Source: a virus | Lineage: Duplodnaviria > Heunggongvirae > Uroviricota > Caudoviricetes | Reading direction: 5' to 3' (one strand) | Virus record (IMG/VR): IMGVR_UViG_2526164629_000027 | DNA length: 37,247 nucleotides | Part shown: positions 5,277 through 36,331 of the stretch, piece after piece | How the letters are laid out: each line of letters starts with the position of its first letter | How positions within the stretch are numbered: position 1 is the stretch's first letter | Notes under the pieces: model-generated | Seen by the model: only the letters and a program-made list of their open reading frames with translations | The model's database searches: none | What the model was told of the DNA's origin: nothing | Program-made: the position numbers and the translations under genes

Positions 5277-5598
5277 GAAACCAGAACATGCACACACAAA
5301 AAAACCGCTTGCCATGTCGCAATCAGTCAGGTTACATTTCCGCTGCACCTCACAAAACGGGTGTCGGGTTTCGCAGCCTGCTGACTACACAAGCGCACAA
5401 CCGCGCCAGCGGTTTTTTTGTGCGTACTGTATTGCCACGTTTTTTTCGCGTCAGAATTATGGCGGGGCGTACGGGGCCGACTTCGGTCGGGCCGGGTTCT
5501 TGTGTAGCCGGTACTGCGAACCTCGTACGTCTCGCCACCCACAGTTTCGCAGCTCTGGATGGTGAGTTTTCACAACTTACTACACAAGGGGCCACACC

Positions 5599-6273: not shown

Positions 6274-9021
6274 ATGACGGCAGAGTACATCAGGGACTGG
6301 CAACAACCGCGCCACGCCGTGGGGCGTGAAGGAACGGGGATCCCCGCTCCTGAATCCGCGCTTTCCTCCTGGCTGGATGCCTACCGGGCAGAGAACGAAC
6401 GCCGCCAGGAAATGGCTGATGCGGCGTTCTCCGCCACGCCGCTGGGCAACCTGATTAATAAAAGCCTGGACGCACAGGAAAAACAGGACAAAACCATCAC
6501 ACTGGCAGGAGACGCCAGAAAACAGGCACGCGGCGCGGTGGATGAAGCCATGGCCTCGCTGCGCCTGCTGCCGTCCTATCTGCGCGATCCGCTTATTCGC
6601 CACCTCTCCTTCCTGCGCAAAAAACAGGAAGCCGATCGCCGGAAAGGCAAAAAGAGCTGGCAGGCGGAACGCTATGCACGCGGAACCCTGCGCAAAATAT
6701 TCGAACGTCTGGATCGCACTGACGGACACTGGCTGACACCGGGTTATCGCTCCCTTGCCGGACGCGAACGCCTGGACGATTTGCTTTACCTGCCGCAGCT
6801 CAACAAACACCAGATACAGACGCTGGCCACCATGACGGCGGCGATGTTCAGCAGCACCTTCGAAAAACTCTGCGATGGCTTTGGCGCGACCGATGGCGAG
6901 CTGACCATGGATGTAACGCTGAAGGCGTATCAGATGCTGGCCCGCATGGCGTTACACCTGCACGCCATGCCTCCACATTATGACGCACTGACAACAGACA
7001 AAGACCGGAGGAACGAACCAGACACGGAGCTGCTGCCGGGCGCAATCCTTCGCCTGACCTGTGCGGAATGGTGGAAACGCAAACTGTGGCTGTTACGTTG
7101 CGAGTGGAGAGAAGAACAACTCCGCGCCGCCTGTCTGGTTTCCAGAAAAACATCACCCTATCTGAGCCAGGACGCGTTAAGCGAGTTTCGCGCACAGCGC
7201 GAGAAAACACGCGATTTCCTGAAAAGTTTCATGCTAGAAAATGAAGACGGGTTCACGATTGATCTCGAGACGGTGTATTACGCGGGAGTAAGTAACCCGG
7301 TTCACCGTAAGGCAGAAATGATGGCCACCATGAAGGGACTGGAACTTCTGGCCGAAGCCCGTGGCGACAGAGCGGTGTTTCTGACTGTCACCTGCCCGTC
7401 AAAATACCACGCAACAACGGAGAACGGTCATCCGAACCCCAAATGGAACGGGGCCACCATGCGCGACTCCAGCGATTACCTGGTTAACACGTTTTTTGCG
7501 GCAGTCCGCAAAAAACTGAACCGCGACGGTCTGCGCTGGTATGGCATCCGCACGGTGGAGCCTCACCATGACGGCACCGTGCACTGGCATATGATGGTCT
7601 TTGCTCATCCGGAAGAAATCGACAGCATCGTGGCCATCACCCGCGATATTGCCATTCAGGAAGACCGCCACGAGCTGGGCAATGATATTACTCCGCGCTT
7701 TAAGGTGGAGTATGTCGACGGCTCAAAAGGCACACCAACCAGCTATATCGCGACCTACATCGGAAAAAACCTGGACAGCCGCGCCGTGGATGGCATCGAC
7801 CCGAAAACGGGCAAGCCACGCGTTGACCACGAAACCGGAAAATCAATGGCCGAGAGCGTGGAACGCGCCATCGGCTGGGCGCGCCTTCACCGGGTCCGCC
7901 AGTTCCAGTTCTTTGGTATCCCCTCCCGTCAGGTGTGGCGTGAACTGCGCCGCCTTGCCAGCCAGATGGCACGCAACCCGGAAGGCCCGCAACGGCTGAA
8001 GGATGACGCAATGGACGCGGTACTCGCTGCCGCTGATGCCGGATGTTTTGCCACCTACATTGAGAAACAGGGTGGCGTACTTGTTCCACGCAAAGACTAC
8101 CTGATTCGCACCGCCTACGACCTCGCAGATGAGCTGAACGATTACGGTGAACAGAGCGTACAGATTTACGGGATCTGGTCGCCGCTCATTGGGGAGTCTT
8201 CCCGCGTATGCACGCATCCGGATAACTGGAAGCTGGTAAGACGCAAACCGGAAGCGGAAGACAGCGCCCGCGAAAATGGTTTTGACCTTCAGGGCGGCCC
8301 TGCCGCCCCTTGGACTCGTGGCAATAACTGTCCCCGTGTACAGGAAACGGACAACAACGGGACAGAACAGCCGGAAGAACGGCCAGCACCGTGGCCGCGG
8401 CTTCCTGAAGGCGTTGACGTGAATGAATGGATGCGCTCACTGAAACGGCACGAACGCCGGGCACTGATGCGTTCGCTGCGTGACAAACAGGCAAAAAACA
8501 GCAGTGATGAAATGCAGAACTGGACACAGAGCCGCAAACAGCCACAGCCTTTGCCTGATAACCACGAGTTACTCGCTAAAGAATGGCGGGAGTCTGCTGA
8601 ATCTCTCGGCCTGCATATCGGTGAACAGCAGATGCAGCACCTGTTACGAGGCGGCAGTCTGTACGTTGGCGGCAGCATCATTGCACCGCAGGGATTTGAA
8701 ATTGTACGCAAACAGGATACCCGCCCGGACAGCCGAATCACGCAGCTCTGGCAACGCCTGAGTCGTAATCACGGCGTAAGCAGCACGGAGATCCGCCATA
8801 ACCCGGTCGCCAGCTATCTGGAACAACTAGAGGCATCAGACCCTGAAGCCGCCGCACGCCTGGCATCCACACTTCAGCAAGACCAGAACACCATGAAAAC
8901 ACCCGTTACCGTACTTTCTGACATGCTGCGCGCCATCCGCGACGCAGAGCACGCACAGAGAATCAGTGAAACCACTAAACATGCTCGCAAAAAAATCAGT
9001 TTATTGCATCGAACACGATAG
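6274..9021 (+). CDS. A: Replication initiation protein A (rolling-circle HUH endonuclease, P2 gpA family)
   Basis: 915 aa; HUH-type motif (HWHMMVFAH) and a tyrosine-pair motif (YIATYIGKN) characteristic of the P2 A family. Confidence 0.9.
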   Translation: MTAEYIRDWQQPRHAVGREGTGIPAPESALSSWLDAYRAENERRQEMADAAFSATPLGNLINKSLDAQEKQDKTITLAGDARKQARGAVDEAMASLRLLPSYLRDPLIRHLSFLRKKQEADRRKGKKSWQAERYARGTLRKIFERLDRTDGHWLTPGYRSLAGRERLDDLLYLPQLNKHQIQTLATMTAAMFSSTFEKLCDGFGATDGELTMDVTLKAYQMLARMALHLHAMPPHYDALTTDKDRRNEPDTELLPGAILRLTCAEWWKRKLWLLRCEWREEQLRAACLVSRKTSPYLSQDALSEFRAQREKTRDFLKSFMLENEDGFTIDLETVYYAGVSNPVHRKAEMMATMKGLELLAEARGDRAVFLTVTCPSKYHATTENGHPNPKWNGATMRDSSDYLVNTFFAAVRKKLNRDGLRWYGIRTVEPHHDGTVHWHMMVFAHPEEIDSIVAITRDIAIQEDRHELGNDITPRFKVEYVDGSKGTPTSYIATYIGKNLDSRAVDGIDPKTGKPRVDHETGKSMAESVERAIGWARLHRVRQFQFFGIPSRQVWRELRRLASQMARNPEGPQRLKDDAMDAVLAAADAGCFATYIEKQGGVLVPRKDYLIRTAYDLADELNDYGEQSVQIYGIWSPLIGESSRVCTHPDNWKLVRRKPEAEDSARENGFDLQGGPAAPWTRGNNCPRVQETDNNGTEQPEERPAPWPRLPEGVDVNEWMRSLKRHERRALMRSLRDKQAKNSSDEMQNWTQSRKQPQPLPDNHELLAKEWRESAESLGLHIGEQQMQHLLRGGSLYVGGSIIAPQGFEIVRKQDTRPDSRITQLWQRLSRNHGVSSTEIRHNPVASYLEQLEASDPEAAARLASTLQQDQNTMKTPVTVLSDMLRAIRDAEHAQRISETTKHARKKISLLHRTR

Positions 9022-9066
9022 AAATATAGAGCTAAGGCCGCCCTAGGAATAAGGAGGCCTTGAAAA

Positions 9067-9876
9067 TCAACCTATCTTCTTATGAAGTAAAATTAATTTC
9101 TGTATTAATTTGGAATGAAACATAGATATATCAGAAATTCTTATTTCATTAGGCGAGTCTATATGATTGGAAACTTCTTCCTCCAAGGAGTCACAAATAC
9201 TTTCTAGATTTTCAATATCTGCATTTAATTCTGGAAAACTATTAAACAAATATAATGAATCCCGTAACTCTCCTAGTTTTGGTAAAAGAGTATTACTGAA
9301 TACACTAAGAAATTCCTCTTCTGATAATGCCATGGAGTTTTTAAAATTTTGCACAACATCGAATGCCAACCCATTAATTTTAGGCATAATTACTTCTCTT
9401 ACCCAATACCCTTCATTAATAGCTTCTTTACGTTCTTTTCTATGTTGAACACAAGGAATAACAAAGGATGAAACTAAAGCAAATAAAGAGATGCCAATAG
9501 AAATCCACTCTGGACCATTTTCCGGAACCTTTACAATATTATATATATCATAGGAATTTGGAACATCTTTGAAATAATTAGCAAATAAATCTTTTTTGTT
9601 ATCCCTTGCCAGAGATAACTTATGAAAGGTGTCGTTTGCCTTTTCACAAAACATCAAGCCATCATTCGGGTTTCCGGATAACAAAAACGGTGATGATATA
9701 CCACCAAGTCCTGAATCGGAAATATAAAAAGGCGTGTTTGGATAAAGTGACTCATTACATTCAATGTTTTCTTTGTTGGAAAAATCTGTCACAGAGCAAG
9801 CTGCGGGGAATATAAAAAAAATGACAGACAGCGCTGTCATTTTGATTTGAAAAATATTTTTAAAAGAAGGGAACAT
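9067..9876 (-). CDS. Cargo gene d: bitopic membrane protein (signal/lipoprotein-like N-terminus, central TM helix), unknown function
   Basis: 269 aa; about 30% GC; N-terminal hydrophobic segment ending in Cys (VIFFIFPAAC), central TM (WISIGISLFALVSSFVIPCV), acidic C-terminal domain; overlaps the end of gene c by 17 nt. Confidence 0.6.
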   Translation of the reverse strand: MFPSFKNIFQIKMTALSVIFFIFPAACSVTDFSNKENIECNESLYPNTPFYISDSGLGGISSPFLLSGNPNDGLMFCEKANDTFHKLSLARDNKKDLFANYFKDVPNSYDIYNIVKVPENGPEWISIGISLFALVSSFVIPCVQHRKERKEAINEGYWVREVIMPKINGLAFDVVQNFKNSMALSEEEFLSVFSNTLLPKLGELRDSLYLFNSFPELNADIENLESICDSLEEEVSNHIDSPNEIRISDISMFHSKLIQKLILLHKKIG

Positions 9877-10204
9877 TTTTATGTAAGCCTCTCCTTACAG
9901 CTCTATCTAATTCAGAAAGCATACCTTCTTTATATTCACGACCATCAAGTACAGTGCGACTATAAAATTCGCTAGGCGAAGAAAATTTCGGCAAAACCGT
10001 TTCAAGCATACCTAGAAAGTATGAGCTTGATACAACAATTCCCTTGGGGATCAATAGATATAATCTATCATTACTGGTTGTGCAAAATTTCCCTATATTA
10101 AAGTAATCATAGGCTTGGCGCCCATTAGAACGTCCTGCAAAAAGTTTCTTGTTACTATCTTTTACTAACTTATTGAAATCTATGGTGATGTCAGCCATTT
10201 TCAT
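9860..10204 (-). CDS. Cargo gene c: small protein with a STAS-like (anti-sigma-antagonist-like) Ser motif
   Basis: 114 aa; ATG with SD GAGGA; segment GIVVSSSYFLGML resembles the conserved phospho-Ser region of SpoIIAA/RsbV-type STAS domains (recognised by eye only). Confidence 0.55.
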   Translation of the reverse strand: MKMADITIDFNKLVKDSNKKLFAGRSNGRQAYDYFNIGKFCTTSNDRLYLLIPKGIVVSSSYFLGMLETVLPKFSSPSEFYSRTVLDGREYKEGMLSELDRAVRRGLHKNVPFF

Positions 10205-10214
10205 GTACCTGTCC

Positions 10215-11282
10215 TCAAGTTCGCTGGGTGGCGTTTTCTGGTAGAGGAAAACGAATATTGATCATAACTCCAGGAAATCGAGCATCCTTCATACGCTTAA
10301 GATAGTTGCGATCCGGTTCAGATTCAAGCCCTACATCATTAAAAGGGTAAGTAAAAATGTCACTTTCCTCGTCATTAACCAACCTTTGCTTTAATTTATA
10401 TGATCCATCAAAGTTAATATGAGTACTACCAGATATTAAAGTCATTTTTATCCCACCTTTAATATCTCTTCCCATTTTTTTAAGATTATCATGCATATCT
10501 TGAAATAACTTCAATAATTCAATTGTTCCGGTGCCAGAACTGTCAGTTTCTTTCTCGTTTTTACAACTCACCCGCCCTTGCAAGGCCGCTACTGTTGTTA
10601 ATCCTTCCTTAAACATACCCTTTTTCTTAATATGCTTATTTATGTATGGATTAACTTGTTGACTTAATGAAAAATGATCCTCAGGTAAATTATCAAAAGT
10701 TTCGCTGATAGTTTTCCCAAAATTGAAAACAGCCAACTCACATATGGGGTTTCGTACGTTATTATTAACAAAACCTCTCAAATACCAGCGTGGGCGTTGC
10801 TCTAACCCACAATGCCGCTCCGCATTATCAAGGAGTTCCCCCATGCAGGAAGTTAAATGCTTTTCTGCCTCATGTACAAGTTTTAAATTATGATCATTTA
10901 AGCATTCGTTTATGTATGCGGTAAATTTTTCAGCAGTGACATTTTTTCTGTCATGGGCAAAGGCAGAAGCATTCTCCTTTCCGATACTATCAGCAGAGAA
11001 GATTCGTTTCTTCGGATTCGCTTTTTTCGATGCTTCAGTAGAGTCCAGAACTTTACCTGGTGCAGCATTACTAATCTCTTTTACAAGCCCGACATCCCTG
11101 ATAATTTCAAGATACTGTTCATCTTTAGGGTAGATACCATTAATCTGAATCATCGTATCTTTGAAATTTATATTACTTTGCCTTGCTGCTGTAAGAGCAA
11201 CACCTAATAGACACTCAAGACCAAGACAGTGTTTTTGTTTTCTTGTAATCAAAAATATATGATTTCCATTTACCTCTTGCAA
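10215..11282 (-). CDS. Cargo gene b: GHKL (histidine-kinase-like) ATPase-domain protein
   Basis: 355 aa as listed (TTG start); the first in-frame ATG is at 11153; N-box-like GELLDNAERH (ExxxNAxxH) and Gly-rich DSSGTGTIELL segment; AT-rich. Confidence 0.55.
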   Translation of the reverse strand: MQEVNGNHIFLITRKQKHCLGLECLLGVALTAARQSNINFKDTMIQINGIYPKDEQYLEIIRDVGLVKEISNAAPGKVLDSTEASKKANPKKRIFSADSIGKENASAFAHDRKNVTAEKFTAYINECLNDHNLKLVHEAEKHLTSCMGELLDNAERHCGLEQRPRWYLRGFVNNNVRNPICELAVFNFGKTISETFDNLPEDHFSLSQQVNPYINKHIKKKGMFKEGLTTVAALQGRVSCKNEKETDSSGTGTIELLKLFQDMHDNLKKMGRDIKGGIKMTLISGSTHINFDGSYKLKQRLVNDEESDIFTYPFNDVGLESEPDRNYLKRMKDARFPGVMINIRFPLPENATQRT

Positions 11283-11688
11283 TTAATTTTGTGGCAGCAC
11301 TAATAAATAGCAGAGATTTCTCTGGATTGTCATATAAGTCAAAATATTTAGGTATTAATATCTTCTCTGCGTCACGACGAAGAATTGATGAGTCATACTC
11401 TTTTATAATCGATATATTTTCAATGAACGTAGCGACTTGGTTTTGGACAGGAGTTGTTTCATCGGAAAAACGAAGACTACCATTTTTCTCTTGCGCAGGC
11501 TTTTTTTTCTTAGCTCTCTCAACGCTACGAAGAAATCGCAACCATCCACGTAAAAAGGTTCTTTTAGAATCTTCTTTATTGATTTTTTTCATTTCCAAAT
11601 GTTCCTGCAAAGTTAACGTAGCCCACAAGGCGCTAAGTATACTTTCTGCTATATTTTTTTCACTATACAAATGCACAATAGTGCACAA
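11215..11688 (-). CDS. Cargo gene a: small basic protein, or N-terminal part of gene b if the two are one frameshifted ORF
   Basis: 157 aa from TTG, or 125 aa from the ATG at 11590-11592; Lys-rich; overlaps gene b by 68 nt in the -1 frame across several A/T runs. Confidence 0.4.
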   Translation of the reverse strand: MCTIVHLYSEKNIAESILSALWATLTLQEHLEMKKINKEDSKRTFLRGWLRFLRSVERAKKKKPAQEKNGSLRFSDETTPVQNQVATFIENISIIKEYDSSILRRDAEKILIPKYFDLYDNPEKSLLFISAATKLIARGKWKSYIFDYKKTKTLSWS

Positions 11689-26409: not shown

Positions 26410-26804
26410 TGACATTCAGAATGAGTGAACAATCACGGACCATAAAAATTTATAATCTACTGACCGGAACCAATGAGTTTATTGGTGAAGGTGATGCATA
26501 CATTCCACCTCATACAGGTCTGCCTGCAAACAGTACCGATATTGCCCCGCCAGATATTCCGGCTGGCTTCGTGGCCGTTTTCAACAGTGATGAGGCATCG
26601 TGGCATCTCGTTGAAGACCATCGGGGTAAAACTGTTTATGACGTGGCATCAGGGGACTCGTTATTTATTTCTGAACTCGGTCCATTACCGGAAAATGTTA
26701 CCTGGTTGTCGCCGTATGGAGAGTATCAGAAGTGGAACGGCACATCCTGGGTGAAAGATGCAGAAGCAGAAAAACTGTTTCGGATAAGGGAGGCGGAAGA
26801 ATAA
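26409..26804 (+). CDS. G: Tail fibre assembly chaperone, N-terminal part (P2 gpG/Tfa family)
   Basis: 131 aa; position immediately after H; its conserved C-terminal Tfa region is in another frame. Confidence 0.7.
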
Positions 26805-26986
26805 AAAACAGCCTGATGCAGGTAGCCAGCGAGCATATTGCGCCACTTCAGGATGCCGTAGATTTGGATATTGCAACGGAGGAAGAGGCATCGTTACTGG
26901 CTGCATGGAAGACATACCGGGTATTGTTGAATCGTGTTAATACAGCGGTAGCAGCGGATGTTGAGTGGCCAGTCGCCCCACAATAA
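26732..26986 (+). CDS. Tail fibre assembly chaperone, C-terminal conserved region in a different frame (frameshifted continuation of G)
   Basis: Translation ...[61 protein letters not shown] matches conserved Tfa C-termini; no credible independent start. Confidence 0.5.
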
Positions 26987-27635: not shown

Positions 27636-27758
27636 ATGTTATAAGGTTAAGAGATTATAAAATCCTGTTATTTGTTATTCAAAAACAATTTTCTGAGAAG
27701 GACATACAACAGCAAGTCGCCAGTCACCTTCATCAGGAAATTGGCGACATACGTTAAA

Positions 27759-28253
27759 TCAGAGCAGCCCCTTAACTGAGCTGGCCGCGCTATTAAGGGA
27801 TGATGTCACCTTATCTTTGAAGCCGGACAACATATCGCTGAACGATGAGGATTGCAGGCGCTCCCGCAAATCCTCATCACAGCGTTCAAGAGTCAGTGAA
27901 AATTCTATCTTTTTCGCTTTACCGTAGCGATCAAACTCGGAACGGGTCGTATTCGTTTCGGTCAGGACATACATGCCGTAAATCTGCCCGACGCCATCAA
28001 TCAGAGGCCAGGGCCGTCCTGTATACGCCTGCGTGGTCAGCAGAGACAGCGACACTTCGCCACCTGTAATTTCAGGATAAAGCACACCAGAAAGAACGAT
28101 GCGGTCATCACCTGCACCGATATACTGCCAGCTTGCTGAACGGTTAACGCGTTCATTTTTCACATGCCGCCAGCTTTTATTTTGCTGTAACTGCTGATGC
28201 GGCAATGTGCGCAGCTCAAAAACAAACATGCCGTAGATCATCATCATGGCCAT
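27759..28253 (-). CDS. U: Tail protein U
   Basis: 164 aa; immediately downstream of the tape-measure gene on the same strand. Confidence 0.75.
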   Translation of the reverse strand: MAMMMIYGMFVFELRTLPHQQLQQNKSWRHVKNERVNRSASWQYIGAGDDRIVLSGVLYPEITGGEVSLSLLTTQAYTGRPWPLIDGVGQIYGMYVLTETNTTRSEFDRYGKAKKIEFSLTLERCDEDLRERLQSSSFSDMLSGFKDKVTSSLNSAASSVKGLL

Positions 28254-28259
28254 GACTCC

Positions 28260-31103
28260 TCAATCTTTATCGCAAAAACTGCCACGCCCGGCACGGGCGC
28301 GCCGTTCCATTTCTGCCCTGACCATTTCACCGACCAGTTTCGCCAGTTCGCGGGGATTCTGCGTAACAACGTTATGCAGATGAACATGAATTTCACCGCC
28401 AAATCCGGAGACAACAGGCTCCCGGTTACGGGAAGTTGCAGGAACTGATGCCACTGGCGATCGTATGGCCTCCGCCACCGGGCGGGAGCTGGCCGCAACA
28501 ACAGGGACCAGCGCCGGAGGCAGAGGAGTCGGGACCACGGGTGTGATGTTGATTGCGGAAGCAGGCTTACTGACCTGCGCAATCTTCCGCTCCTGCCACT
28601 CCCCACGAACGGCAAGTGCGCGGGGCAGGTTCTTAAAGACAATATCGCCGGGGCCAATACGTTTTTTCGTCTCATCAACCAGCTTACCTGTGTTATCAGC
28701 AATTTTGCTGAGTCTGCGTAGCGTACCGGTATTGCTGTCTGTGAGCGGTTTGTTGTCTTTGGGTTTATCGCCTCCGGTGCCATTGCCATTTTCCGCAGAC
28801 TTCGGCGGATTGATTTTCGCAATGTCTCCCTGAAACAGAGCAACCTTGTCCTGAAGAATGGCCGCACGCTGTGCGTCTTCGATTTTCTTGCGCGCCCTTT
28901 CCGCTTCATCCGGAAGCACACCGAGCTTTTCAAGTATCCACGCCAGCGTATCCAGCAACATTTTTGCAGGTGTAAGAACAAGTTGTAACGCACCGCCAAG
29001 AACGTTACCGAATATCTCGCCAGCACTGGTACATTTATCCAGCGTTTCCTTGCTGGACTCCATCGGTGACAGCAGCGATTTAAACCAGTTAAACACCTGG
29101 CTTATCCCGCTTCCGATTGCGTCAAAAACAGGACCAAACCGTTCAAAGGTTTCGCGCAACGGGGTCAGCCTTTCCATAATCCCGCTGAACACCCCGGCAA
29201 AAAATGCCCTGATGGGATCCCAGTATTTCCAGATAAGAACGGCAGCTCCGGCAAGCGCAGCCACGATAAGACCAACCGGACTGAACAACGCCCCGATAGC
29301 GCCTCCCAGTAAAGAAACGGAACCCGTCACCATTCCCCATAGTGCTGGCAGAACCCTGACAGCATTCATTGATCCGGTCAGGAGGGAAAAACCAAGACGC
29401 AGTTTTGCCAGCGGGCCAGCAAGCACACCAATAGCCAGCGACAACGAGCCAACCGTTGCAGTCATTGCCAGCAGTGCACCGCCTGCAATCAGTAGCTGGC
29501 GCGTCAGTGCGGGATGGGCCTGCGCCAGCGCCGTCACCTTTGATACCACTCGCGTGAGCCACTGCGTGACAGAACGCAGCGGACCGTCAATCAGATCTGC
29601 AATGCGGATGCGCAACCCTTCCCATGCACTGCTGAGTGATTTCAGATCGCCGTCAAGGTTGTTGGCCATAACCTTTGCCGTGCGTTCAGCCTCACCGCGC
29701 GCGCCTTCAAGTTCTTTTCTCAGTTTGGGTAAGGAGCCGTTACCTGCCGCATCAACGAGGGCCATAAATGATGTGAAAGCCTCTTCTCCTGCAATGTCCT
29801 TAAAGAACGATACCCGGTCAACTTCCCCGTATTTGCGGGTAGCTTTATAAAGGTCAGCCAGCACATCCTCCATCGGGCGCATTTTGCCCCCGGCATCCGA
29901 GACAGACACGCCAAGCTCTTTCAGCGCCTCTGCTGCCGCCTTTGGCGGTGATGCCAGACGAGCCAGGCTGGCACGCATTGCCGTACCAGCATCACTCCCC
30001 CTGATACCCATATTCGCCAGCACGCCCGCCATCGCTGCGGCCTGCTCCAGCGATATTCCCAGCTTACCCGCCACCGGACCTGCATATTTCATGGTTTCGC
30101 CCAGCGCGCGAAGGTCAGTGTTAGTACGGGTAAACGCTGCTGTAAGCGTGTCACCGACCCGGTCCATCTGGTCAGCGGAGAGGCCGAACTGCGTCAGGAT
30201 ATTTGAGCCAATATCCGCCGTCTCGCCAAGGTCCATACCGCCAGCCGTTGCCATGCTCAGCACGCCCGGAAGCGCAGCCTGAATGGCCTGCGGTGTGAAG
30301 CCAGCCATTGCAAGAAATGCCTGCCCACTGGCGGCATCGCCTGCGGTGAACTGCGTTTCAGAGCCAAGTTTTAACGCCTGCTCACGCAGCGCCTTAAACT
30401 GCGGGCTGTTTTTGTCGATTCGCGTCAGTGCCTGAACGCGGGACATCTCTTTCCCGAACCCGATCGCAGGCTGCAAAAAACGCCCGGCAGCATAGCCGCC
30501 CGCCGCTGCCGCACCAATTGCCAGCGCACCACCTGTTTTCAGTTTTTCCGCTGTTTCCTGCGCGCGCGAATACCGCTCACGCGCCCGCGTTACACGCGCA
30601 AGCGCCTGCCGTTCGCGTTCAAGCTGGTTGTTGTATTGTTCGGTGCGTCTGATGGCCTGCTGGATGGTGTTATCGCTGCCTGTCAGGGAAATGCCGTGGC
30701 GTTTCAGCTCTCCGCCAAGCTCCCGCATTTTCTGAATTTCCCGTGTGCGCGATTCATTCAGGCGTTCAAGCCGGGTGCTTAACTGCTGCATCAGCTTTTG
30801 TTGTTTTTCGCTGAGCACTGTACCCGTGCGTTGTAACTGATTAAGGGCGTTAAGCTGGCGTCGTGCTTTCACGATGCCCGCATCCGCTTTACTGACAGCG
30901 TCGCGGGCGCGCTCAAATGATCGCGCCTGACGCTCGAGATTTTTGATCGCCCCCTGCGTTCGCTGGATGGAGTCACCAAACTGCCCCATCAGGCGGCGGG
31001 CGTTTTCGGCAGGCCGGGTCAGCCTGTCAACGGCGCTGAAAGCGACCCGGATATCAAGAGTCTTCATTGTCTGCATTCCCGCTGCGAAGTGCCGCCCGCT
31101 CAC
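28260..31103 (-). CDS. T: Tail tape measure protein (P2 gpT family)
   Basis: 947 aa; long helical/coiled N-terminal region, Gly/Ala-rich hydrophobic middle; true start may be the ATG at 31076 or 31067. Confidence 0.9.
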   Translation of the reverse strand: MSGRHFAAGMQTMKTLDIRVAFSAVDRLTRPAENARRLMGQFGDSIQRTQGAIKNLERQARSFERARDAVSKADAGIVKARRQLNALNQLQRTGTVLSEKQQKLMQQLSTRLERLNESRTREIQKMRELGGELKRHGISLTGSDNTIQQAIRRTEQYNNQLERERQALARVTRARERYSRAQETAEKLKTGGALAIGAAAAGGYAAGRFLQPAIGFGKEMSRVQALTRIDKNSPQFKALREQALKLGSETQFTAGDAASGQAFLAMAGFTPQAIQAALPGVLSMATAGGMDLGETADIGSNILTQFGLSADQMDRVGDTLTAAFTRTNTDLRALGETMKYAGPVAGKLGISLEQAAAMAGVLANMGIRGSDAGTAMRASLARLASPPKAAAEALKELGVSVSDAGGKMRPMEDVLADLYKATRKYGEVDRVSFFKDIAGEEAFTSFMALVDAAGNGSLPKLRKELEGARGEAERTAKVMANNLDGDLKSLSSAWEGLRIRIADLIDGPLRSVTQWLTRVVSKVTALAQAHPALTRQLLIAGGALLAMTATVGSLSLAIGVLAGPLAKLRLGFSLLTGSMNAVRVLPALWGMVTGSVSLLGGAIGALFSPVGLIVAALAGAAVLIWKYWDPIRAFFAGVFSGIMERLTPLRETFERFGPVFDAIGSGISQVFNWFKSLLSPMESSKETLDKCTSAGEIFGNVLGGALQLVLTPAKMLLDTLAWILEKLGVLPDEAERARKKIEDAQRAAILQDKVALFQGDIAKINPPKSAENGNGTGGDKPKDNKPLTDSNTGTLRRLSKIADNTGKLVDETKKRIGPGDIVFKNLPRALAVRGEWQERKIAQVSKPASAINITPVVPTPLPPALVPVVAASSRPVAEAIRSPVASVPATSRNREPVVSGFGGEIHVHLHNVVTQNPRELAKLVGEMVRAEMERRARAGRGSFCDKD

Positions 31104-31217
31104 GCCAGCTAACCACTTCGCCGGGCGTCATCATGAAGATTTCGGCGGGCGACCAGTTAAAAATGGCGGCAATATCCGCCACAAAGTCTTCTATGTACTC
31201 AAAGCACACAACCGTGA

Positions 31218-31583
31218 TCAGGCTTCCGTCGCCTGTTCGTTCTTCCCGCCAGAGTCCGCACCGCTCAAAAAATTTACGGCAACCACACATAACTGAATAA
31301 AGTCACGGGATGCCATTTTTTTGATCGTCACTTCATCCAGTCGCGGTGATGTCACGCGTGACAGCAGCGTAAACATGGATTCCGCTTTCAGATTCAGCAC
31401 ATCAGACAGCGACAAATCTCGCAGAGATCCAGCCTGCTCAATAGCCCCGGTGATCTCCACATACGTGATTTTTTCGCCGCCTCGCTCAATTGGTTGGGTA
31501 AGTTTTACGCCACGCTCACTGGTTTCTTTCACAGTGTCAGTAACTACCGTGTTTTCGGTATCGATGTTTTTCGTCTCTTTCAT
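31218..31583 (-). CDS. E: Tail assembly chaperone E; E+E' extension to 31054 by programmed -1 frameshift
   Basis: 121 aa with SD AGGAG; contains the slippery heptamer T TTT TTG in frame (VNFL); the -1 frame continues as ...FFERCGLWREERTG... to a stop at 31054, overlapping the T start. Confidence 0.8.
   Translation of the reverse strand: MKETKNIDTENTVVTDTVKETSERGVKLTQPIERGGEKITYVEITGAIEQAGSLRDLSLSDVLNLKAESMFTLLSRVTSPRLDEVTIKKMASRDFIQLCVVAVNFLSGADSGGKNEQATEA
31266..31272 (-). promoter_or_regulatory. Programmed -1 ribosomal frameshift slippery site (TTTTTTG) for E/E'
   Basis: Heptamer read as AA-T TTT TTG in the E frame; the same heptamer is used by P2 E/E'. Confidence 0.75.
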
Positions 31584-31637
31584 CAGGAAACTCCTTTCAG
31601 TCAGAGGCGACGCACTGCGCCGCCTGCATATTACTTA

Positions 31638-32150
31638 TCAACCAAGCCCAAGCGCGGAACGGATACGGTCAGGCACAATGTCCTTGCCGTCCTTCCGGTA
31701 AATGAAGTTCAGCAGGTCAATCTCCCACAACGGGCGATCGTTAACACTCAGCTTGTAGTAGGTGTTTTTAATGGCGTAAGTGTGTGATGTGGCTTCGCCC
31801 TGTTTGGCTTCCCCCATATCAATTTCCGTCACACGTCCGCGCATCTCGATTTCATACAGATCGCTTTCTGCATCGGTGTAGTATTCACCCGCAAAACGCA
31901 GCAGCGTGCCGTCAATCGTGCCGCCATATTTAAGGAACAGCGCACGAACAGCTCCCCCCATAACAAAACTCGCATCAAGCGCGGAGTCGTCCAGACCGAG
32001 ATCAATACTTACCGCCCCCATCATGCCACCACCACGATAGCTGTCGGTTTTGCGCGTCAGTTTAGGCAGGGTGACGGACGTCACCTTACCCACTTCGTTT
32101 TCACCATCCACAAACAGCGTAAAAAAGCGAAGATGTTTTGGTACAGCCAT
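31638..32150 (-). CDS. FII: Tail tube protein (P2 gpFII family)
   Basis: 170 aa; follows the sheath gene with start/stop overlap. Confidence 0.85.
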   Translation of the reverse strand: MAVPKHLRFFTLFVDGENEVGKVTSVTLPKLTRKTDSYRGGGMMGAVSIDLGLDDSALDASFVMGGAVRALFLKYGGTIDGTLLRFAGEYYTDAESDLYEIEMRGRVTEIDMGEAKQGEATSHTYAIKNTYYKLSVNDRPLWEIDLLNFIYRKDGKDIVPDRIRSALGLG

Positions 32151-33334
32151 CAGACACCTCCCAGCACCGCAAATGCGGGACCAAAGAATTCATCAGTAAA
32201 CGACTGGTAAAGCTCCATGTCTTCCAGCGGGGGAACAGGCGTATATTTGTAGCGAATACGCACACGCCCCTGACGTAAATTCGTGGTGCCGTTATCCACC
32301 ACGTCATACCAGCACGACGCCCCAATCAGTTTCCCGGCAGTAACCAGTGAATCCAGTTTTGCCCTGATGGCACTGATAACATCTTTCACGTTCGCAGGCG
32401 TCAGTGGACTGTCGATGGTTTCAAACTGCGCTTCCGCAATTGAATCAGCCAGCACCTGTGCGGTTCGGGTATACACCTCAAAGATGTAGGCGTTCGTTTC
32501 CGGTGTGCGGTTGCCCCAGAAGCGGAACCCGTTGCGACGAATAATGGTCGTGATTTCTTTGTTGTTGAGGCTGTTGGCATCGCTGTCTTCGGCCTGCAAC
32601 GACCAGAACACATGCCTGGACATCCCCAGCACATTTTTAACCGGAACGTTGGACAGTGATTTGTGCCATCCCTGCTCATGGTCAATGTACGCACGAAGGC
32701 CGCACGCATAGGCAGGCGCGGGGAACGTTTCGTTTTTGCCACTTTTCGGGTTGTAGGCGATGAAGTCCGGCCATAAGAGCATCACCTCACGTTCGTTGAA
32801 TTTCTGGCGGTAGGTAATCACCTCAGCCATCGTGTTACAGCCGTGACATGAGGCATACACAAACGCGCGCAGTTTACCCGCAATCACGCACAGGGATTTT
32901 GTCACCGCCTCCGTGTCCAGCTCCGGCGCGGCCAGAATACGCGGACGGTATCCGATGCTTTCATCCTGCTCTGCAACAAGCAGCGCATACATCCCCGTAT
33001 AGCTGCCGTCAGATTCAGAACCACCGATAACCAGTTGATCCTGCGTCTTTCCGTCTTCTTCTTTGTGTTCAGCCACGCGAACGACGATCACCTTTGTGCT
33101 CACCTGGTCTGCGATGGCCTTAAGCGCACGATAAAGCGTCCCCGTTGTCCCGCATTTTCCCAGCACGTCATTGACGCGGGTCAGCAGTGTGGGCTTGTTC
33201 AGCGGGAACAGCTTCGCGTCCGCATCATCCGCCGTTGCCACGATACCGATAACGCTGGAATCAACATCGTTAATCGCTGTTACCAGGTCGGTATTTTCCG
33301 TAACACGGGCACCATGAAAACGAGTTTCACTCAT
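32150..33334 (-). CDS. FI: Contractile tail sheath protein (P2 gpFI family)
   Basis: 394 aa; size and position match P2 FI. Confidence 0.9.
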   Translation of the reverse strand: MSETRFHGARVTENTDLVTAINDVDSSVIGIVATADDADAKLFPLNKPTLLTRVNDVLGKCGTTGTLYRALKAIADQVSTKVIVVRVAEHKEEDGKTQDQLVIGGSESDGSYTGMYALLVAEQDESIGYRPRILAAPELDTEAVTKSLCVIAGKLRAFVYASCHGCNTMAEVITYRQKFNEREVMLLWPDFIAYNPKSGKNETFPAPAYACGLRAYIDHEQGWHKSLSNVPVKNVLGMSRHVFWSLQAEDSDANSLNNKEITTIIRRNGFRFWGNRTPETNAYIFEVYTRTAQVLADSIAEAQFETIDSPLTPANVKDVISAIRAKLDSLVTAGKLIGASCWYDVVDNGTTNLRQGRVRIRYKYTPVPPLEDMELYQSFTDEFFGPAFAVLGGV

Positions 33335-33491
33335 AGCTTTAGCCCCTTGTATCCGTTAAATGATTCGGCAACAATCATCACCCACCACGCGCGTAATCTC
33401 ACCCCTGTGCCGTTCTCCCGATCCGGCGACAACAAAAAGCAGTAACCCCCTCCGCACGCACATGCGACCATGCCGCACAGGGAGGGAACAG

Positions 33492-34601
33492 ATGACCGAT
33501 ACCACCATGCAATTGCTCAGTCAGGGCACAGACCCCGTGAAAATGCCGGATTTTGATATTCTCGCGGAGGGTAAAACGCTGTCAGGCGTGGCAGAGCGCC
33601 TGATGAGCCTGTCACTGACCGACAACCGGGGATTTGACGCGGACCAGCTCACCATCACGCTGGATGATGCGGATGGTCAGTTGCAGCTACCGCCACGGGG
33701 CACGCGCCTGACGGTTCTCATTGGCTGGAAAGGAGAACCGCTGACAGAAAAAGGCACTTACATTGTTGATGAAATCGCTCACGAAGGACCGCCGGACAGG
33801 CTGACTGTTTCAGCCAGAAGCGCAGATTTTCGGGATGAATTTAACGTTAAACGTGAGGTGTCCTGGCATGATGTGACCGTTGAGCGTGTGGTATCCGCCA
33901 TCGCTCATCGGTATGGTCTGAAACCGCAAATCAGCGAAATGCTGATGGATATCGAAATCGACCACGCCGACCAGACCGAAGAAAGCGACATGTCCTTCCT
34001 TACGCGCATGGCGGAAATGCTGGGCGCAATCACCACGGTAAAAAGCGGTAATCTGTTATTCATTATGCCAGGCGGTGGCGTGAACGCACAGGGCCAGCCG
34101 TTGCCATCGTTCGCCATCACGCGCAGCAGTGGCGATCGCCATCAGTTCCGCATTGCTGACCGCGAAGCGTATACGGGGGTACGCGCTTACTGGCTTGATC
34201 TTAATTACGGGAAAAAGAAAAAAGTCAGCGTGAAACACCGCAAACCGCCAAAACCCAAAAAGGAGAAAAGCAGCAGCCGTGAAGGTGATTATATGGAAGG
34301 CGCGGAAGGCAATGTGTTTGTGTTACGCAAGACTTATCAGAACGAGCAGGCAGCAAGACGCGCAGCGGCGGCAAAGTGGCAGCAGCTACAACGCGGAGCC
34401 GCATCATTCTCCATCACGCTGGCATGTGGTCGTGCAGAACTCTACCCCGAAATGCATGGCACGGTAACAGGATTTAAAAGCGAGATTGATAATCAGGACT
34501 GGATTATTGCAAAAGCCGAGCACACCATCGATAACAGCGGCTTTACCACGCAGCTTGAGCTTGAGGCAAAAATCCCGGAATGGATAGCAGAAACAGAGTG
34601 A
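33492..34601 (+). CDS. D: Tail protein D (late control gene D family)
   Basis: 369 aa from the ATG at 33492 with SD GGAGGG; the listed ORF begins 132 nt upstream at a non-ATG start. Confidence 0.8.
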   Translation: MTDTTMQLLSQGTDPVKMPDFDILAEGKTLSGVAERLMSLSLTDNRGFDADQLTITLDDADGQLQLPPRGTRLTVLIGWKGEPLTEKGTYIVDEIAHEGPPDRLTVSARSADFRDEFNVKREVSWHDVTVERVVSAIAHRYGLKPQISEMLMDIEIDHADQTEESDMSFLTRMAEMLGAITTVKSGNLLFIMPGGGVNAQGQPLPSFAITRSSGDRHQFRIADREAYTGVRAYWLDLNYGKKKKVSVKHRKPPKPKKEKSSSREGDYMEGAEGNVFVLRKTYQNEQAARRAAAAKWQQLQRGAASFSITLACGRAELYPEMHGTVTGFKSEIDNQDWIIAKAEHTIDNSGFTTQLELEAKIPEWIAETE

Positions 34602-34643
34602 GCAACTTAGAATAGCAGCAGCACCACGTTAAGGGAGGTCGCT

Positions 34644-34904
34644 ATGTTCCGTTGTCCGCTTTGTGGCGCATCTGCCCGTATCCGCACCAGTCGTCCGGAA
34701 AATGATTCAAACACCGTGCGGCAAAAGTATTACCAGTGTAACAACCTGGAATGCGGCGTATGCTTCTCAACACTGGAAGCTTTCCATAAATTCACATCAA
34801 AACACACCTCCGGCGTTCACTCTTCAGAAGGTATCCCGTGGCATGAGCTGCCAGCTTCACACAGGGGAAACAATCAGATGAGTTTGCCTTTACCTCAGAA
34901 TTAA
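34644..34904 (+). CDS. ogr: Ogr/Delta-family zinc-finger late-gene transcription activator
   Basis: 86 aa; MFRCPLCGASARIRTSRP...YYQCNNLECGVCF with C-x2-C-x22-C-x4-C spacing as in P2 Ogr / 186 B. Confidence 0.85.
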   Translation: MFRCPLCGASARIRTSRPENDSNTVRQKYYQCNNLECGVCFSTLEAFHKFTSKHTSGVHSSEGIPWHELPASHRGNNQMSLPLPQN

Positions 34905-35095
34905 CAGGCAGAATTGCCGGAGTAACAAAAAAGCGATAGATTACGCGCGGGTGCCTTTCGGCTGATGGTCGGAGGGAATACCCGAAGGCCAGATGTGGAA
35001 AGGCCCCGGAAAACATTTCTGTTTAACCGAGGCCCTAACATATCTACCTTAAGCAAGTGATAGGTTAGCGCCTCTCCAACAAAGGAGCAAGCGCT

Positions 35096-35236
35096 ATGTC
35101 GCAAAAATCGCTTACGGCCATCACGTTCTGCGTGACGGTAATCCTCATCATCTGGATGCTACACGGTTCGCTGTGTGAAATACGGATGAGCTTCTGGGGA
35201 GCGGAGTTTGCGGCGTTCTTACAGTGTAAGCAGTAA
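35096..35236 (+). CDS. Hok/Gef-family type I toxin (46 aa)
   Basis: Not in the ORF track (below size cutoff); SD AAAGGAG at 35081-35087; translation MSQKSLTAITFCVTVILIIWMLHGSLCEIRMSFWGAEFAAFLQCKQ has an N-terminal TM helix plus SLCEIR...AAF motifs shared with Hok/HokA. Confidence 0.65.
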   Translation: MSQKSLTAITFCVTVILIIWMLHGSLCEIRMSFWGAEFAAFLQCKQ

Positions 35237-35323
35237 GGAAACCGCGACGGGGGAGCAATCCCCCGTCAATCGGTTGCTAAGGTTGGCTGAAGTGGCACCC
35301 TATCTCACAGACATGAACAACAA

Positions 35324-35356
35324 ACCCGCAGCGTAAGAACTGCGGGTTTTCTTTTT
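35324..35356 (+). terminator. Intrinsic terminator downstream of the hok-like gene
   Basis: cccgcag-N9-ctgcggg hairpin followed by ttttcttttt. Confidence 0.6.
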
Positions 35357-35424
35357 GGAACTATCACTAGCTAGTGTACCGTTAACGGCACATAATGCTC
35401 GCACAACAAACCTGTTAAAAGAGA

Positions 35425-35706
35425 TTACTCAGCATTCTCCTGCTTCCATTGCCGGATCATTTCATCGGTAACATCACCCTCATAACATACCACGTCATAC
35501 CCTCCATTACGGCTATATGCACTGCGTCCACCACATCTACTACCATTCCTTGCATGATTATAAGGACACGCACAATTGCCTGGATAAGATTCAATGGATT
35601 CTTTAATTATTTCTTTTTTGATCTGAGCATCAGACTTTCCTGTTGCTGCATATCCGCTAAAAGATACTAAACAAAGGCAGATTGCCATTAATAAACCACA
35701 TCGCAT
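35425..35706 (-). CDS. Hypothetical secreted Cys-rich small protein
   Basis: About 93 aa from MRCGLLMAICLCLVSFSGYAA (signal peptide) with several Cys (NCACPYNH...RCGG...VVCYEG); the listed ORF extends further upstream. Confidence 0.5.
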   Translation of the reverse strand: MRCGLLMAICLCLVSFSGYAATGKSDAQIKKEIIKESIESYPGNCACPYNHARNGSRCGGRSAYSRNGGYDVVCYEGDVTDEMIRQWKQENAE

Positions 35707-36175
35707 ACCGATACACTCTATTACTAACCAATCATAGCCCACATCATAAAATCGAGATGAGGAGTACAATACCTTTAACAAGAAGGTGTCATAACGATAA
35801 TATGTCGTGCAATTCATCAAAAAAAAGATCTATATCAAAGAGATAGAACTCTTATCAGTGCTTCAGACATCGGCATTCGAGGCAGCAGAAAAACAGTAAA
35901 TCTGACGAATTTGCCTTTTCCCAAGATGTTGTCAGATTAAAAAGATAGATTAGCGCAGGTACCTGTTGGTGGATTGCAGGAGGAAAAATGAAGTCGAGTG
36001 GAAAAATCCCAGAAAAATTTTTGTTTAACAGAGGTCCTGGTTCACTATGCGAAATACGGAGGAGCTGCAGAAGAATTCTGCTTCATCCTTAGAGTTTAAA
36101 CAGCACGTGCACTACCATTGTTTCTGCATATCGCCACACCATCGCCACTCAACCGCCATTGCACAAAATACAAAT

Positions 36176-36203
36176 ACAAAAAAACCACCCGAAGGTGGTT
36201 TCA
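36176..36203 (-). terminator. Intrinsic terminator of the tRNA operon
   Basis: On the minus strand a hairpin with tetraloop (accacc-ttcg-ggtggt) followed by a T-run, directly after tRNA-Leu. Confidence 0.7.
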
Positions 36204-36244
36204 CGACACTGCTTATTGCTTTGATTTTATTCTTATCTTTCCCA

Positions 36245-36331
36245 TGGTACCCGGAGCGGGACTTGAACCCGCACAGCGCGAACGCCGAGGGATTTTAAAT
36301 CCCTTGTGTCTACCGATTCCACCATCCGGGC
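36245..36331 (-). tRNA. leuZ: tRNA-Leu (anticodon UAA)
   Basis: 87-nt minus-strand sequence gcccggatggtggaatcggtagacacaagggatttaaaatccc...gggtacca with long variable arm and CCA end. Confidence 0.9.

Follow-up and report, generated by a model that had tools for sequence, protein, structure and literature searches.

A hok/sok-type cassette carried by a P88-like prophage in leuZ of Escherichia coli, from a Hok subfamily apparently lacking mok

A segment of about 420 bp in a prophage of E. coli is very probably a hok/sok-type type I toxin-antitoxin cassette, carried as cargo by a P88-like member of the P2 family that is inserted in leuZ. At the right end of the DNA analyzed (the window, 37,247 nucleotides), pgsA and the tRNA operon glyW-cysT-leuZ occupy the minus strand; the rest of it is a P2-like prophage, recognizable by its integrase, gpA, portal, tail genes, gpD, and Ogr. 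The hok gene itself is already known, annotated, and catalogued. The single point worth following, for RNA biologists, is that the gene belongs to a well-conserved Hok subfamily that apparently, as read from the sequences of its members, has no mok.

Toxin gene and family

The locus had been singled out from the nucleotide sequence (the original prediction) as a Hok/Gef-family type I toxin locus, with a 46-aa ORF containing a transmembrane helix and an SLCEIR...AAF signature, a strong SD, and a terminator of its own. All of these elements were confirmed, at 35096-35236 and 35322-35356:

35096..35236, plus strand: hok CDS, encoding a 46-aa HokA-like toxin of Hok cluster 72 (PF01848; WP_000078920.1; dN/dS 0.24)
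35322..35356, plus strand: hok intrinsic terminator, found by terminator scan (stem at 35322-35349, then TCTTTTT)

The encoded peptide, MSQKSLTAITFCVTVILIIWMLHGSLCEIRMSFWGAEFAAFLQCKQ, scores 30.1 bits with Pfam HOK_GEF (PF01848), above the curated cut-off of 22 (E 3.7e-7), over residues 7-44 and 38 of the 42 profile positions, and contains the motifs S25-L-C-E-I-R30 and A39-A-F41. Its ATG is preceded at 8 nt by an AGGAG SD (35083-35087). Kyte-Doolittle means over 19 residues range from 1.5 to 2.15 for segments starting at residues 1-13, hydropathy exceeds 1.5 across residues 1-31, and the N-terminal two thirds of the peptide are strongly hydrophobic, a profile consistent with a single N-terminal transmembrane helix. 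In an alignment of 20 Hok sequences that includes HokA and HokC, C27-E28 is invariant and C44 is kept throughout except in HokC, which has Tyr there. Both cysteines are encoded by TGT in the window and are thus hard-coded, making TadA editing unneeded. The median pairwise dN/dS among hok homologs is 0.24, falling to 0.12 for the C-terminal half; judged by these substitution rates, the coding region is under purifying selection. The 408-nt transcript region also folds with a z-score of -7.9 relative to dinucleotide shuffles and, from the Pfam score, this z-score, and the dN/dS value, the 46-aa ORF is not a chance reading frame.

The identical peptide is present in RefSeq as "Hok/Gef family protein" (WP_000078920.1), so the protein had already been annotated; the record of phage P88 labels its copy "MokW-like host killing", which is a generic label. 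A recent preprint (Escalera-Maurer et al., bioRxiv 10.1101/2025.08.07.668861) catalogued 32,532 hok loci and showed that prophages are enriched four-fold for them. Its cluster 72 agrees with the gene in the window in 46-aa length, SD, and gene, with nothing of substance different; member 72_1621 differs from the window peptide solely by V16A, and member 72_1589 equals the copy of an Stx phage. For this cluster only the coding sequence was analyzed there, and its mok, Sok, and mRNA are undescribed in that work. Both members are in the tested set of its Table S2, where 45 Hok representatives were examined by arabinose induction, and the text names just 19_179, 60_1482, and 69_1540 as nontoxic. 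From this literature only, 72_1621 (45/46 residues identical to the window peptide) is taken to be toxic, being tested and not among the proteins named as nontoxic.

Of the two K-12 paralogues compared, HokA is the closest, at 43% identity, against 26% for HokC. HokA shares with the window peptide its hard-coded cysteines and the tail ...SLCE...E(F/L)AAFL.CK..., but falls in cluster 93 rather than 72 when Hok proteins are grouped at 60%; in K-12, hokA comes with a mokA in the same frame that is listed as a pseudogene because it has been cut by IS150. At 46 aa, the toxin is shorter than those of plasmid R1 (52 aa) and HokC (50 aa). The only prophage Hok with a tested role is that of hokW-sokW, a type I system of the Stx2 prophage Sp5 for which toxin and antitoxin activity were shown (Takada et al. 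2021, PMC8621323); HokW is a 51-aa HokD-like protein (MKQQKAM...) from a different Hok cluster.

Position within the prophage and spread of the cassette

The locus had been placed immediately right of the prophage, either as cargo or as a chromosomal copy at the integration junction. The former was borne out and the latter was not, and the border itself required correction, as the element ends in leuZ at 36176-36299 and not after ogr. The features that define this part of the window are as follows:

34644..34904, plus strand: ogr, late-gene activator (Pfam Ogr_Delta, 52.4 bits), the last conserved phage gene before hok
35939..36103, plus strand: psi-hok, a dead second hok locus (pairwise alignment blocks 67-100% identical)
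36176..36299, no strand assigned: attR, true right border of the prophage; a direct repeat of 124 bp that spans the 3'ETS-leuZ sRNA and the final 55 nt of leuZ

Several pathogenic E. coli, 55989 among them, carry 34900-36250 with 100% identity. In 55989, an identical copy (100%) of the 124 bp at 36176-36299 lies between yecA and int. In prophage-free K-12, the match to the window resumes exactly at 36176, and on the yecA side it extends to where these 124 bp end. The duplicate in 55989 and the borders of K-12 homology identify the 124-bp repeat as the att core, and hok, about 820 bp inside attR, lies between the attL and attR copies. Phage P88 (NC_026014; Peduoviridae, Xuanwuvirus) matches 27753-35356 at 97.6% identity with hok included; the hok locus itself is 99% identical to the P88 copy, and the homology stops with the hok terminator, whose last base is 35356. 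The hok cassette is cargo inside a P88-like prophage in leuZ, between ogr and the attachment site. A chromosomal hok copy at the integration junction, outside the prophage, might be suggested by the location of the gene past the last recognizable phage gene and close to tRNA genes, but it is extremely improbable. The K-12 yecA-leuZ gap spans only about 195 bp and holds no hok, the att repeat puts the right border well beyond the gene, the locus is part of the P88 genome record, and the order gpD-Ogr-hok recurs in Salmonella P2-like prophages at other sites.

The sequence between hok and attR (35357-36175), together with int and the immunity region (1 to about 3026), is without a P88 counterpart and forms one contiguous alternative module across attP. 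Matches to this alternative module (35357-36175 and the int side) came from 618 E. coli genomes and from none of the phage records. The possibility that 35357-36175 is an older, separate tandem island was considered and rejected: there is no second att copy there, the segment is contiguous with int across attP, and it is absent from P88. It is treated as the prophage's own integration-proximal module. The psi-hok locus at 35939-36103 has suffered a 128-bp deletion equivalent to 35037-35164, which removes the 5' part of the Sok target, the Sok promoter, the SD, the ATG, and the transmembrane segment.

With a coverage of at least 80%, the cassette is present in 1,537 of 5,426 complete E. coli genomes (about 28%), in up to 7 copies each, and it also occurs on 34 plasmids; all 29 of the full-length matches listed for complete E. 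coli genomes carry an annotated Hok/Gef. It recurs at prophage ends and on plasmids, and its homology to unrelated contexts starts at 34928-34946 and ends at 35283-35350. These constant limits across contexts indicate that the segment from the promoter to fbi or the terminator behaves as a discrete mobile cassette.

Transcript, RNA helices, and antisense RNA

The elements assigned to the hok mRNA and to the opposite strand are listed here; the two promoters are putative and the transcript ends are inferred:

34914..34942, plus strand: putative weak sigma-70 hok promoter, from sequence reading (-35 TTGCCG at 34914-19, 17-nt spacer, -10 TAGATT at 34937-42)
34949..35356, plus strand: full-length hok mRNA with a 147-nt leader, CDS, and 3' UTR (Rfam RF01794, fold, and homology block)
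34949..34961, plus strand: tac element at the 5' end, GGGUGCCUUUCGG (MFE pairing with fbi)
35002..35036, plus strand: leader hairpin (helix 4), ucb paired with the GAGG box; on the minus strand, the Sok terminator hairpin
35066..35096, plus strand: SD-sequestering local hairpin, GGAG (35084-87) with CUCC (35074-77), from the MFE fold
35201..35216, plus strand: intragenic box, the codons for AEFAAF, which pairs with the AUG and first codons at 35096-35111 (helix 7)
35245..35268, plus strand: GC-rich stem-loop of the 3' UTR, 5' of fbi (helix 12); presumed exonuclease stop
35287..35300, plus strand: fbi (fold-back inhibitory) element, complementary to tac
about 34994..35055, minus strand: predicted Sok-like antisense RNA of about 60 nt (K-12 sokC mapped via the hokC/window alignment)
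35062..35090, minus strand: putative Sok promoter overlapping the hok SD (-35 TTGCTC, reverse complement of 35085-90; 17-nt spacer; -10 TAACCT, reverse complement of 35062-67)

Rfam RF01794 aligns to the plus strand at 34949-35106, the full model being matched from its position 1, with 47.9 bits (E 6e-9); this is below the gathering score of 59, at which the hok locus is not reported. As a control, the same model gave 118 bits in K-12 on the mRNA-sense (hokC) strand, opposite the annotated sokC. The control indicates that RF01794, named "sok", actually describes the sense leader of hok mRNA and not Sok, and the start of the alignment places the transcript start near 34949 (GGGUGCC...). The limits first given for the locus, 35000-35360, omit the first approximately 50 nt of the transcript and the putative promoter at 34914-34942. 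That promoter matches the consensus at 8 of 12 positions, and its -10 element is kept as TAGATT, TAGAAT, or TAGAGT among homologs. A generic sigma-70 scan called neither this promoter nor the putative Sok promoter, and both weak matches were placed through homology only.

In the MFE structure, 34949-34961 pairs with 35287-35300 to form the 13-bp tac/fbi clamp. The hairpin around the SD is present in the MFE structures of the full-length and the 3'-truncated hok RNA. Folding of the truncated RNA in silico left the SD and AUG sequestered in the MFE structure and did not reproduce the activating refolding, so the activation step stays an analogy. By comparison with R1 (PMC9841398), the stem-loop at 35245-35268 is presumed to define the end of the truncated, active mRNA.

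Conservation of these helices was assessed in an alignment of 15 homologous hok transcripts, with five species named (Escherichia coli, albertii, Salmonella, Citrobacter, Klebsiella) as well as an Stx phage and plasmid-like contigs. The homologs came from E. albertii, Salmonella enterica (including subsp. diarizonae), Citrobacter braakii, Klebsiella oxytoca, the Stx phage, and the plasmid-like contigs, and this diversity was gathered via exact-protein look-ups. A scan of genome contigs returned only seven loci, three of them in assemblies of unrelated taxa, where they are probably contamination. The RNAalifold consensus of the 15 loci shows the same helices as the window fold. Standard pairs occupy 98.0% of cells, compared to 36-43% when the partners are slid by one to three columns; double-sided changes affect 13 pairs (0-7 when slid) and 42 cells (14 ± 3 in shuffles). 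Helix 1, tac/fbi, has 12 pairs, of which 3 are compensatory, and is 98.3% paired, and the leader hairpin (helix 4) is 100% paired with two covarying pairs. The outer stem of the SD hairpin (helix 6) is 98.7% paired. In helix 7, which joins the AUG to the intragenic box, the 14 pairs are 99.5% paired, and the five that vary do so by G-U/G-C switches only; compensatory changes are found in five of the nine pairs of helix 12, the 3' stem-loop. The tac/fbi clamp, the sequestered SD and AUG, and the 3' protective hairpin are supported, at the level of aligned sequences, by conserved pairing and covariation across the 15 loci.

The overall architecture is that of hok/sok (parB) of R1 and of hokC/mokC/sokC of K-12, with which the locus in the window shares the toxin fold class, the tac-fbi clamp, the hairpins formed by ucb with GAGG and around the SD, the protective stem-loop of the 3' UTR, and the placement and direction of the predicted antisense gene. 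Nucleotide identity to the hokC locus is 56%. The settings of the three differ, the window hok being on a P2-like prophage, that of R1 on a plasmid, and hokC on the core chromosome.

A small RNA had been expected on the minus strand at 35,000-35,100, and Sok-type elements lie at about 34994-35055, in agreement with the expected location. The annotated K-12 sokC maps to about 35054-34994 in the hokC/window alignment. The candidate folds into a free 5' tail and a terminal hairpin (-23.3 kcal/mol), and the leader hairpin, which has a C.A mismatch on the mRNA strand, is perfect when read on the Sok strand, with one G.U pair in place of the mismatch. The promoter anticipated on the minus strand was not called by the scan; the putative one placed through homology is a weak match, agreeing with the consensus at 6 of 12 positions. 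It overlies the hok SD, a site equivalent to that of the Sok promoter in the R1 and hokC loci. The motif AGGTTAG/AGGATAG, which corresponds to the putative Sok -10 box, is nearly invariant in the 15 loci, though it is noncoding and barely paired. A Sok RNA at this locus is a well-founded prediction. None of the records compared annotates the antisense RNA predicted at about 34994-35055.

Absence of mok and possible modes of action

The overlapping mok frame that normally accompanies hok, and had been expected here, is missing. No ORF starting with ATG, GTG, or TTG spans the hok ATG, and stops at -30, -35, and -46 close all three frames; mok was sought as an in-frame extension of hok, in the other two frames, and as short leader ORFs, and none was found. 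The GAGG box is kept at 35029-35032, but the aligned position of the mokC ATG reads CTA/ATC, and the in-frame stop falls at the G of the conserved AGGTTAG box. Short leader ORFs (e.g., 34965-35060 and 34993-35053) were rejected as mok, being nonconserved, without an SD, and ending 5' of the hok SD. Among the 13 subfamily loci examined, eight have no spanning ORF; in the other five one is present, with a start and a frame that differ among them, so the spanning ORF is not conserved. In R1, a 70-codon mok begins 8 nt after the GAGG box, and its translation to the hok SD is needed for Hok (PMC9841398). K-12 mokC is an in-frame extension of hokC, whereas the locus in the window has no such frame. 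A full-text literature search for mok-less hok loci found nothing relevant, and the 2026 preprint survey of Hok left Mok unanalyzed (bioRxiv 10.1101/2025.08.07.668861).

The most likely mechanism is that of hok/sok, in which a weak promoter would yield a stable hok mRNA of about 400 nt that is translationally silent as made, with tac clamped to fbi, the SD held in its local hairpin, and the AUG paired to the coding-region box. By analogy with R1, slow 3' trimming to the stem-loop at 35245-35268 would remove fbi and permit refolding into a translatable form that binds Sok. A short, unstable Sok-like RNA (about 35055 to 34994) would bind to the leader, and the resulting duplex would be cleaved. 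Upon loss of the prophage or of Sok transcription, the 46-aa Hok would be made and inserted into the inner membrane, and the cell would be killed or lysed. Without mok, Hok synthesis must either begin at the hok SD itself, after the structure has opened, or be controlled by other means. It is tentatively proposed that the cluster-72 hok loci, which occur in phages and plasmids of Escherichia, Salmonella, Citrobacter, and Klebsiella, function with no mok frame at all: RNA structure alone (the SD hairpin at 35066-35096 and the helix 35096-35111/35201-35216) would control translation, and Sok, whose target lies more than 25 nt upstream of the hok SD, would act only via RNase III-type decay or by blocking a step of refolding, and not through a halt of mok translation.

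The missing frame could also mean that the locus is a regulatory fossil, with an intact toxin ORF but a native mRNA that is never translated for want of mok, and hence silent baggage, a view already put forward for chromosomal hok loci. The stops in all three frames 30-46 nt 5' of the ATG, the lack of a start codon at the mok position, and the mandatory role of mok translation in R1 genetics (PMC9841398) fit this reading, as do the paired SD and AUG of the predicted truncated RNA and the clearly dead hok copy 700 bp away. The preprint also reports no post-segregational killing by the chromosomal hokA, hokB, and hokC of K-12-type strains (10.1101/2025.08.07.668861). Even so, it appears unlikely. 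The mok-less subfamily keeps a 46-47-aa ORF across five species at the dN/dS values given above; the tac/fbi, AUG, and 3' helices are kept with compensatory changes that a dead locus would not maintain; and the promoter boxes persist across genera. True decay looks different, as the deletion in psi-hok illustrates, and the cassette moves as one block from phage to phage and onto plasmids.

A separate question is what a working cassette would do for its carrier, for which prophage retention, help with lysis as described for hokW, or exclusion of other phages may be considered. That the same machinery serves mainly for faster lysis and phage release (cf. hokW in Sp5), or for abortive infection against other phages, and not for prophage addiction, is a serious possibility that nevertheless falls somewhat short of probable. 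With hokW-sokW, Sp5 release is about two-fold higher, and mitomycin C treatment increases HokW (PMC8621323); hok genes show the prophage enrichment noted above (10.1101/2025.08.07.668861); and hok points here in the direction of D and ogr, two late genes from which no called terminator separates it, so that late transcription could read through. Against such a role, hok is not enriched beside defense systems according to the same preprint, PADLOC returned no match for Hok or its neighbors, and HokW belongs, as noted, to a different cluster.

If translation in this subfamily is indeed gated by RNA structure without mok, the cassette would represent a distinct regulatory variant of the textbook hok/sok system, in which mok coupling counts as mandatory. 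Confirmation of the mok-less subfamily would mean that the rule established for R1, by which no Hok is made without mok translation, is not general.

The hok cassette and psi-hok, in the window and in other genomes

A dead second hok locus, psi-hok, adjoins attR at the right end of the prophage:

35939–36103, psi-hok

Its −10 box and leader hairpin are preserved, as are a 5′ end resembling tac and the C-terminal part of the coding region. A 128-bp deletion, equivalent to 35037–35164 in the intact locus, leaves psi-hok without the Sok promoter, SD, ATG, and TM segment. Variants of the psi-hok segment with 92% identity match end to end and differ in length by only a few bases. In the homologous leuZ prophage of E. 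coli O157:H7 86-24 (L006 2488–4031), an IS30 takes the place of ogr and the entire intact hok cassette, along with the 3′ portion of gene D; all that remains there is the segment from window position 35374 onward, psi-hok included. Two Salmonella loci (L023 1501–2131 and L024 1501–2135) each contain two complete cassettes of the same Hok subfamily in tandem, ~490 bp apart, and each cassette has its own tac, fbi (the 3′ element that pairs with tac), and terminator. The window hok was also found on contigs filed as Planococcaceae (a MAG), Vagococcus sp., and Xanthomonas pisi (L011, L012, and L015, respectively), where the Hok protein is 100% identical to that of E. coli in the first two and 74% identical in the third. 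These contigs most likely reflect enterobacterial contamination of the assemblies.

RNA family matches

Three RNAs in the window scored above the Rfam gathering score:

5345–5419, isrK, 61.9 bits, early region
5455–5542, C4 antisense RNA, 83.2 bits, early region, directly after isrK
26752–26949, IS009, 184 bits, near the tail-fibre/invertase region

The orientation of RF01794, the family named “sok antitoxin”, was examined on the K-12 hokC locus. The match (L009 902–1054) lies on the mRNA-sense strand, where it begins at the 5′ end and stops at the hokC ATG; sokC is annotated on the opposite strand. Matches to RF01794 therefore correspond to the hok leader, on the strand opposite to Sok.

The leuZ attachment site

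The attachment sites are copies of a 124-bp repeat:

36176–36299 of the window, attR
3528–3651 of L003 (E. coli 55989), attL

The repeat contains the entire 3′ETS-leuZ sRNA sequence (K-12 b4759) together with 55 nt of leuZ, so the sequence of this sponge RNA is duplicated in the lysogen. Of the two copies, the one in attR alone is connected to the tRNA operon. The same leuZ site is occupied by Salmonella P2-like prophages with a gpD-ogr-hok-hicAB arrangement (L030 and L031).

Additional low-GC genes

The int-linked module between the hok terminator and attR (35357–36175) is present in 618 E. coli genomes and absent from all phage records in the search. It includes, within a low-GC stretch (36–42%), a gene for a hypothetical protein:

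35425–35706, minus strand, WP_001303543.1, 93 aa

The N terminus of this protein resembles a signal peptide and the sequence contains several cysteines; no family was assigned in Pfam or PADLOC. A separate low-GC block (9000–11500; 32–38% GC versus ~55% in the upstream flank and 45–48% downstream) lies in the interval from gene A (replication) to the portal gene and contains three ORFs:

9067–9876, minus strand
9860–10204, minus strand
10215–11282, minus strand

None of the three matched an entry in Pfam or PADLOC. Phage P88 differs in having ParM/partition genes at this position, which corresponds to the hotspot (tin/old) where P2-like phages carry variable cargo. Given that location, the block could be an undescribed defence cassette.
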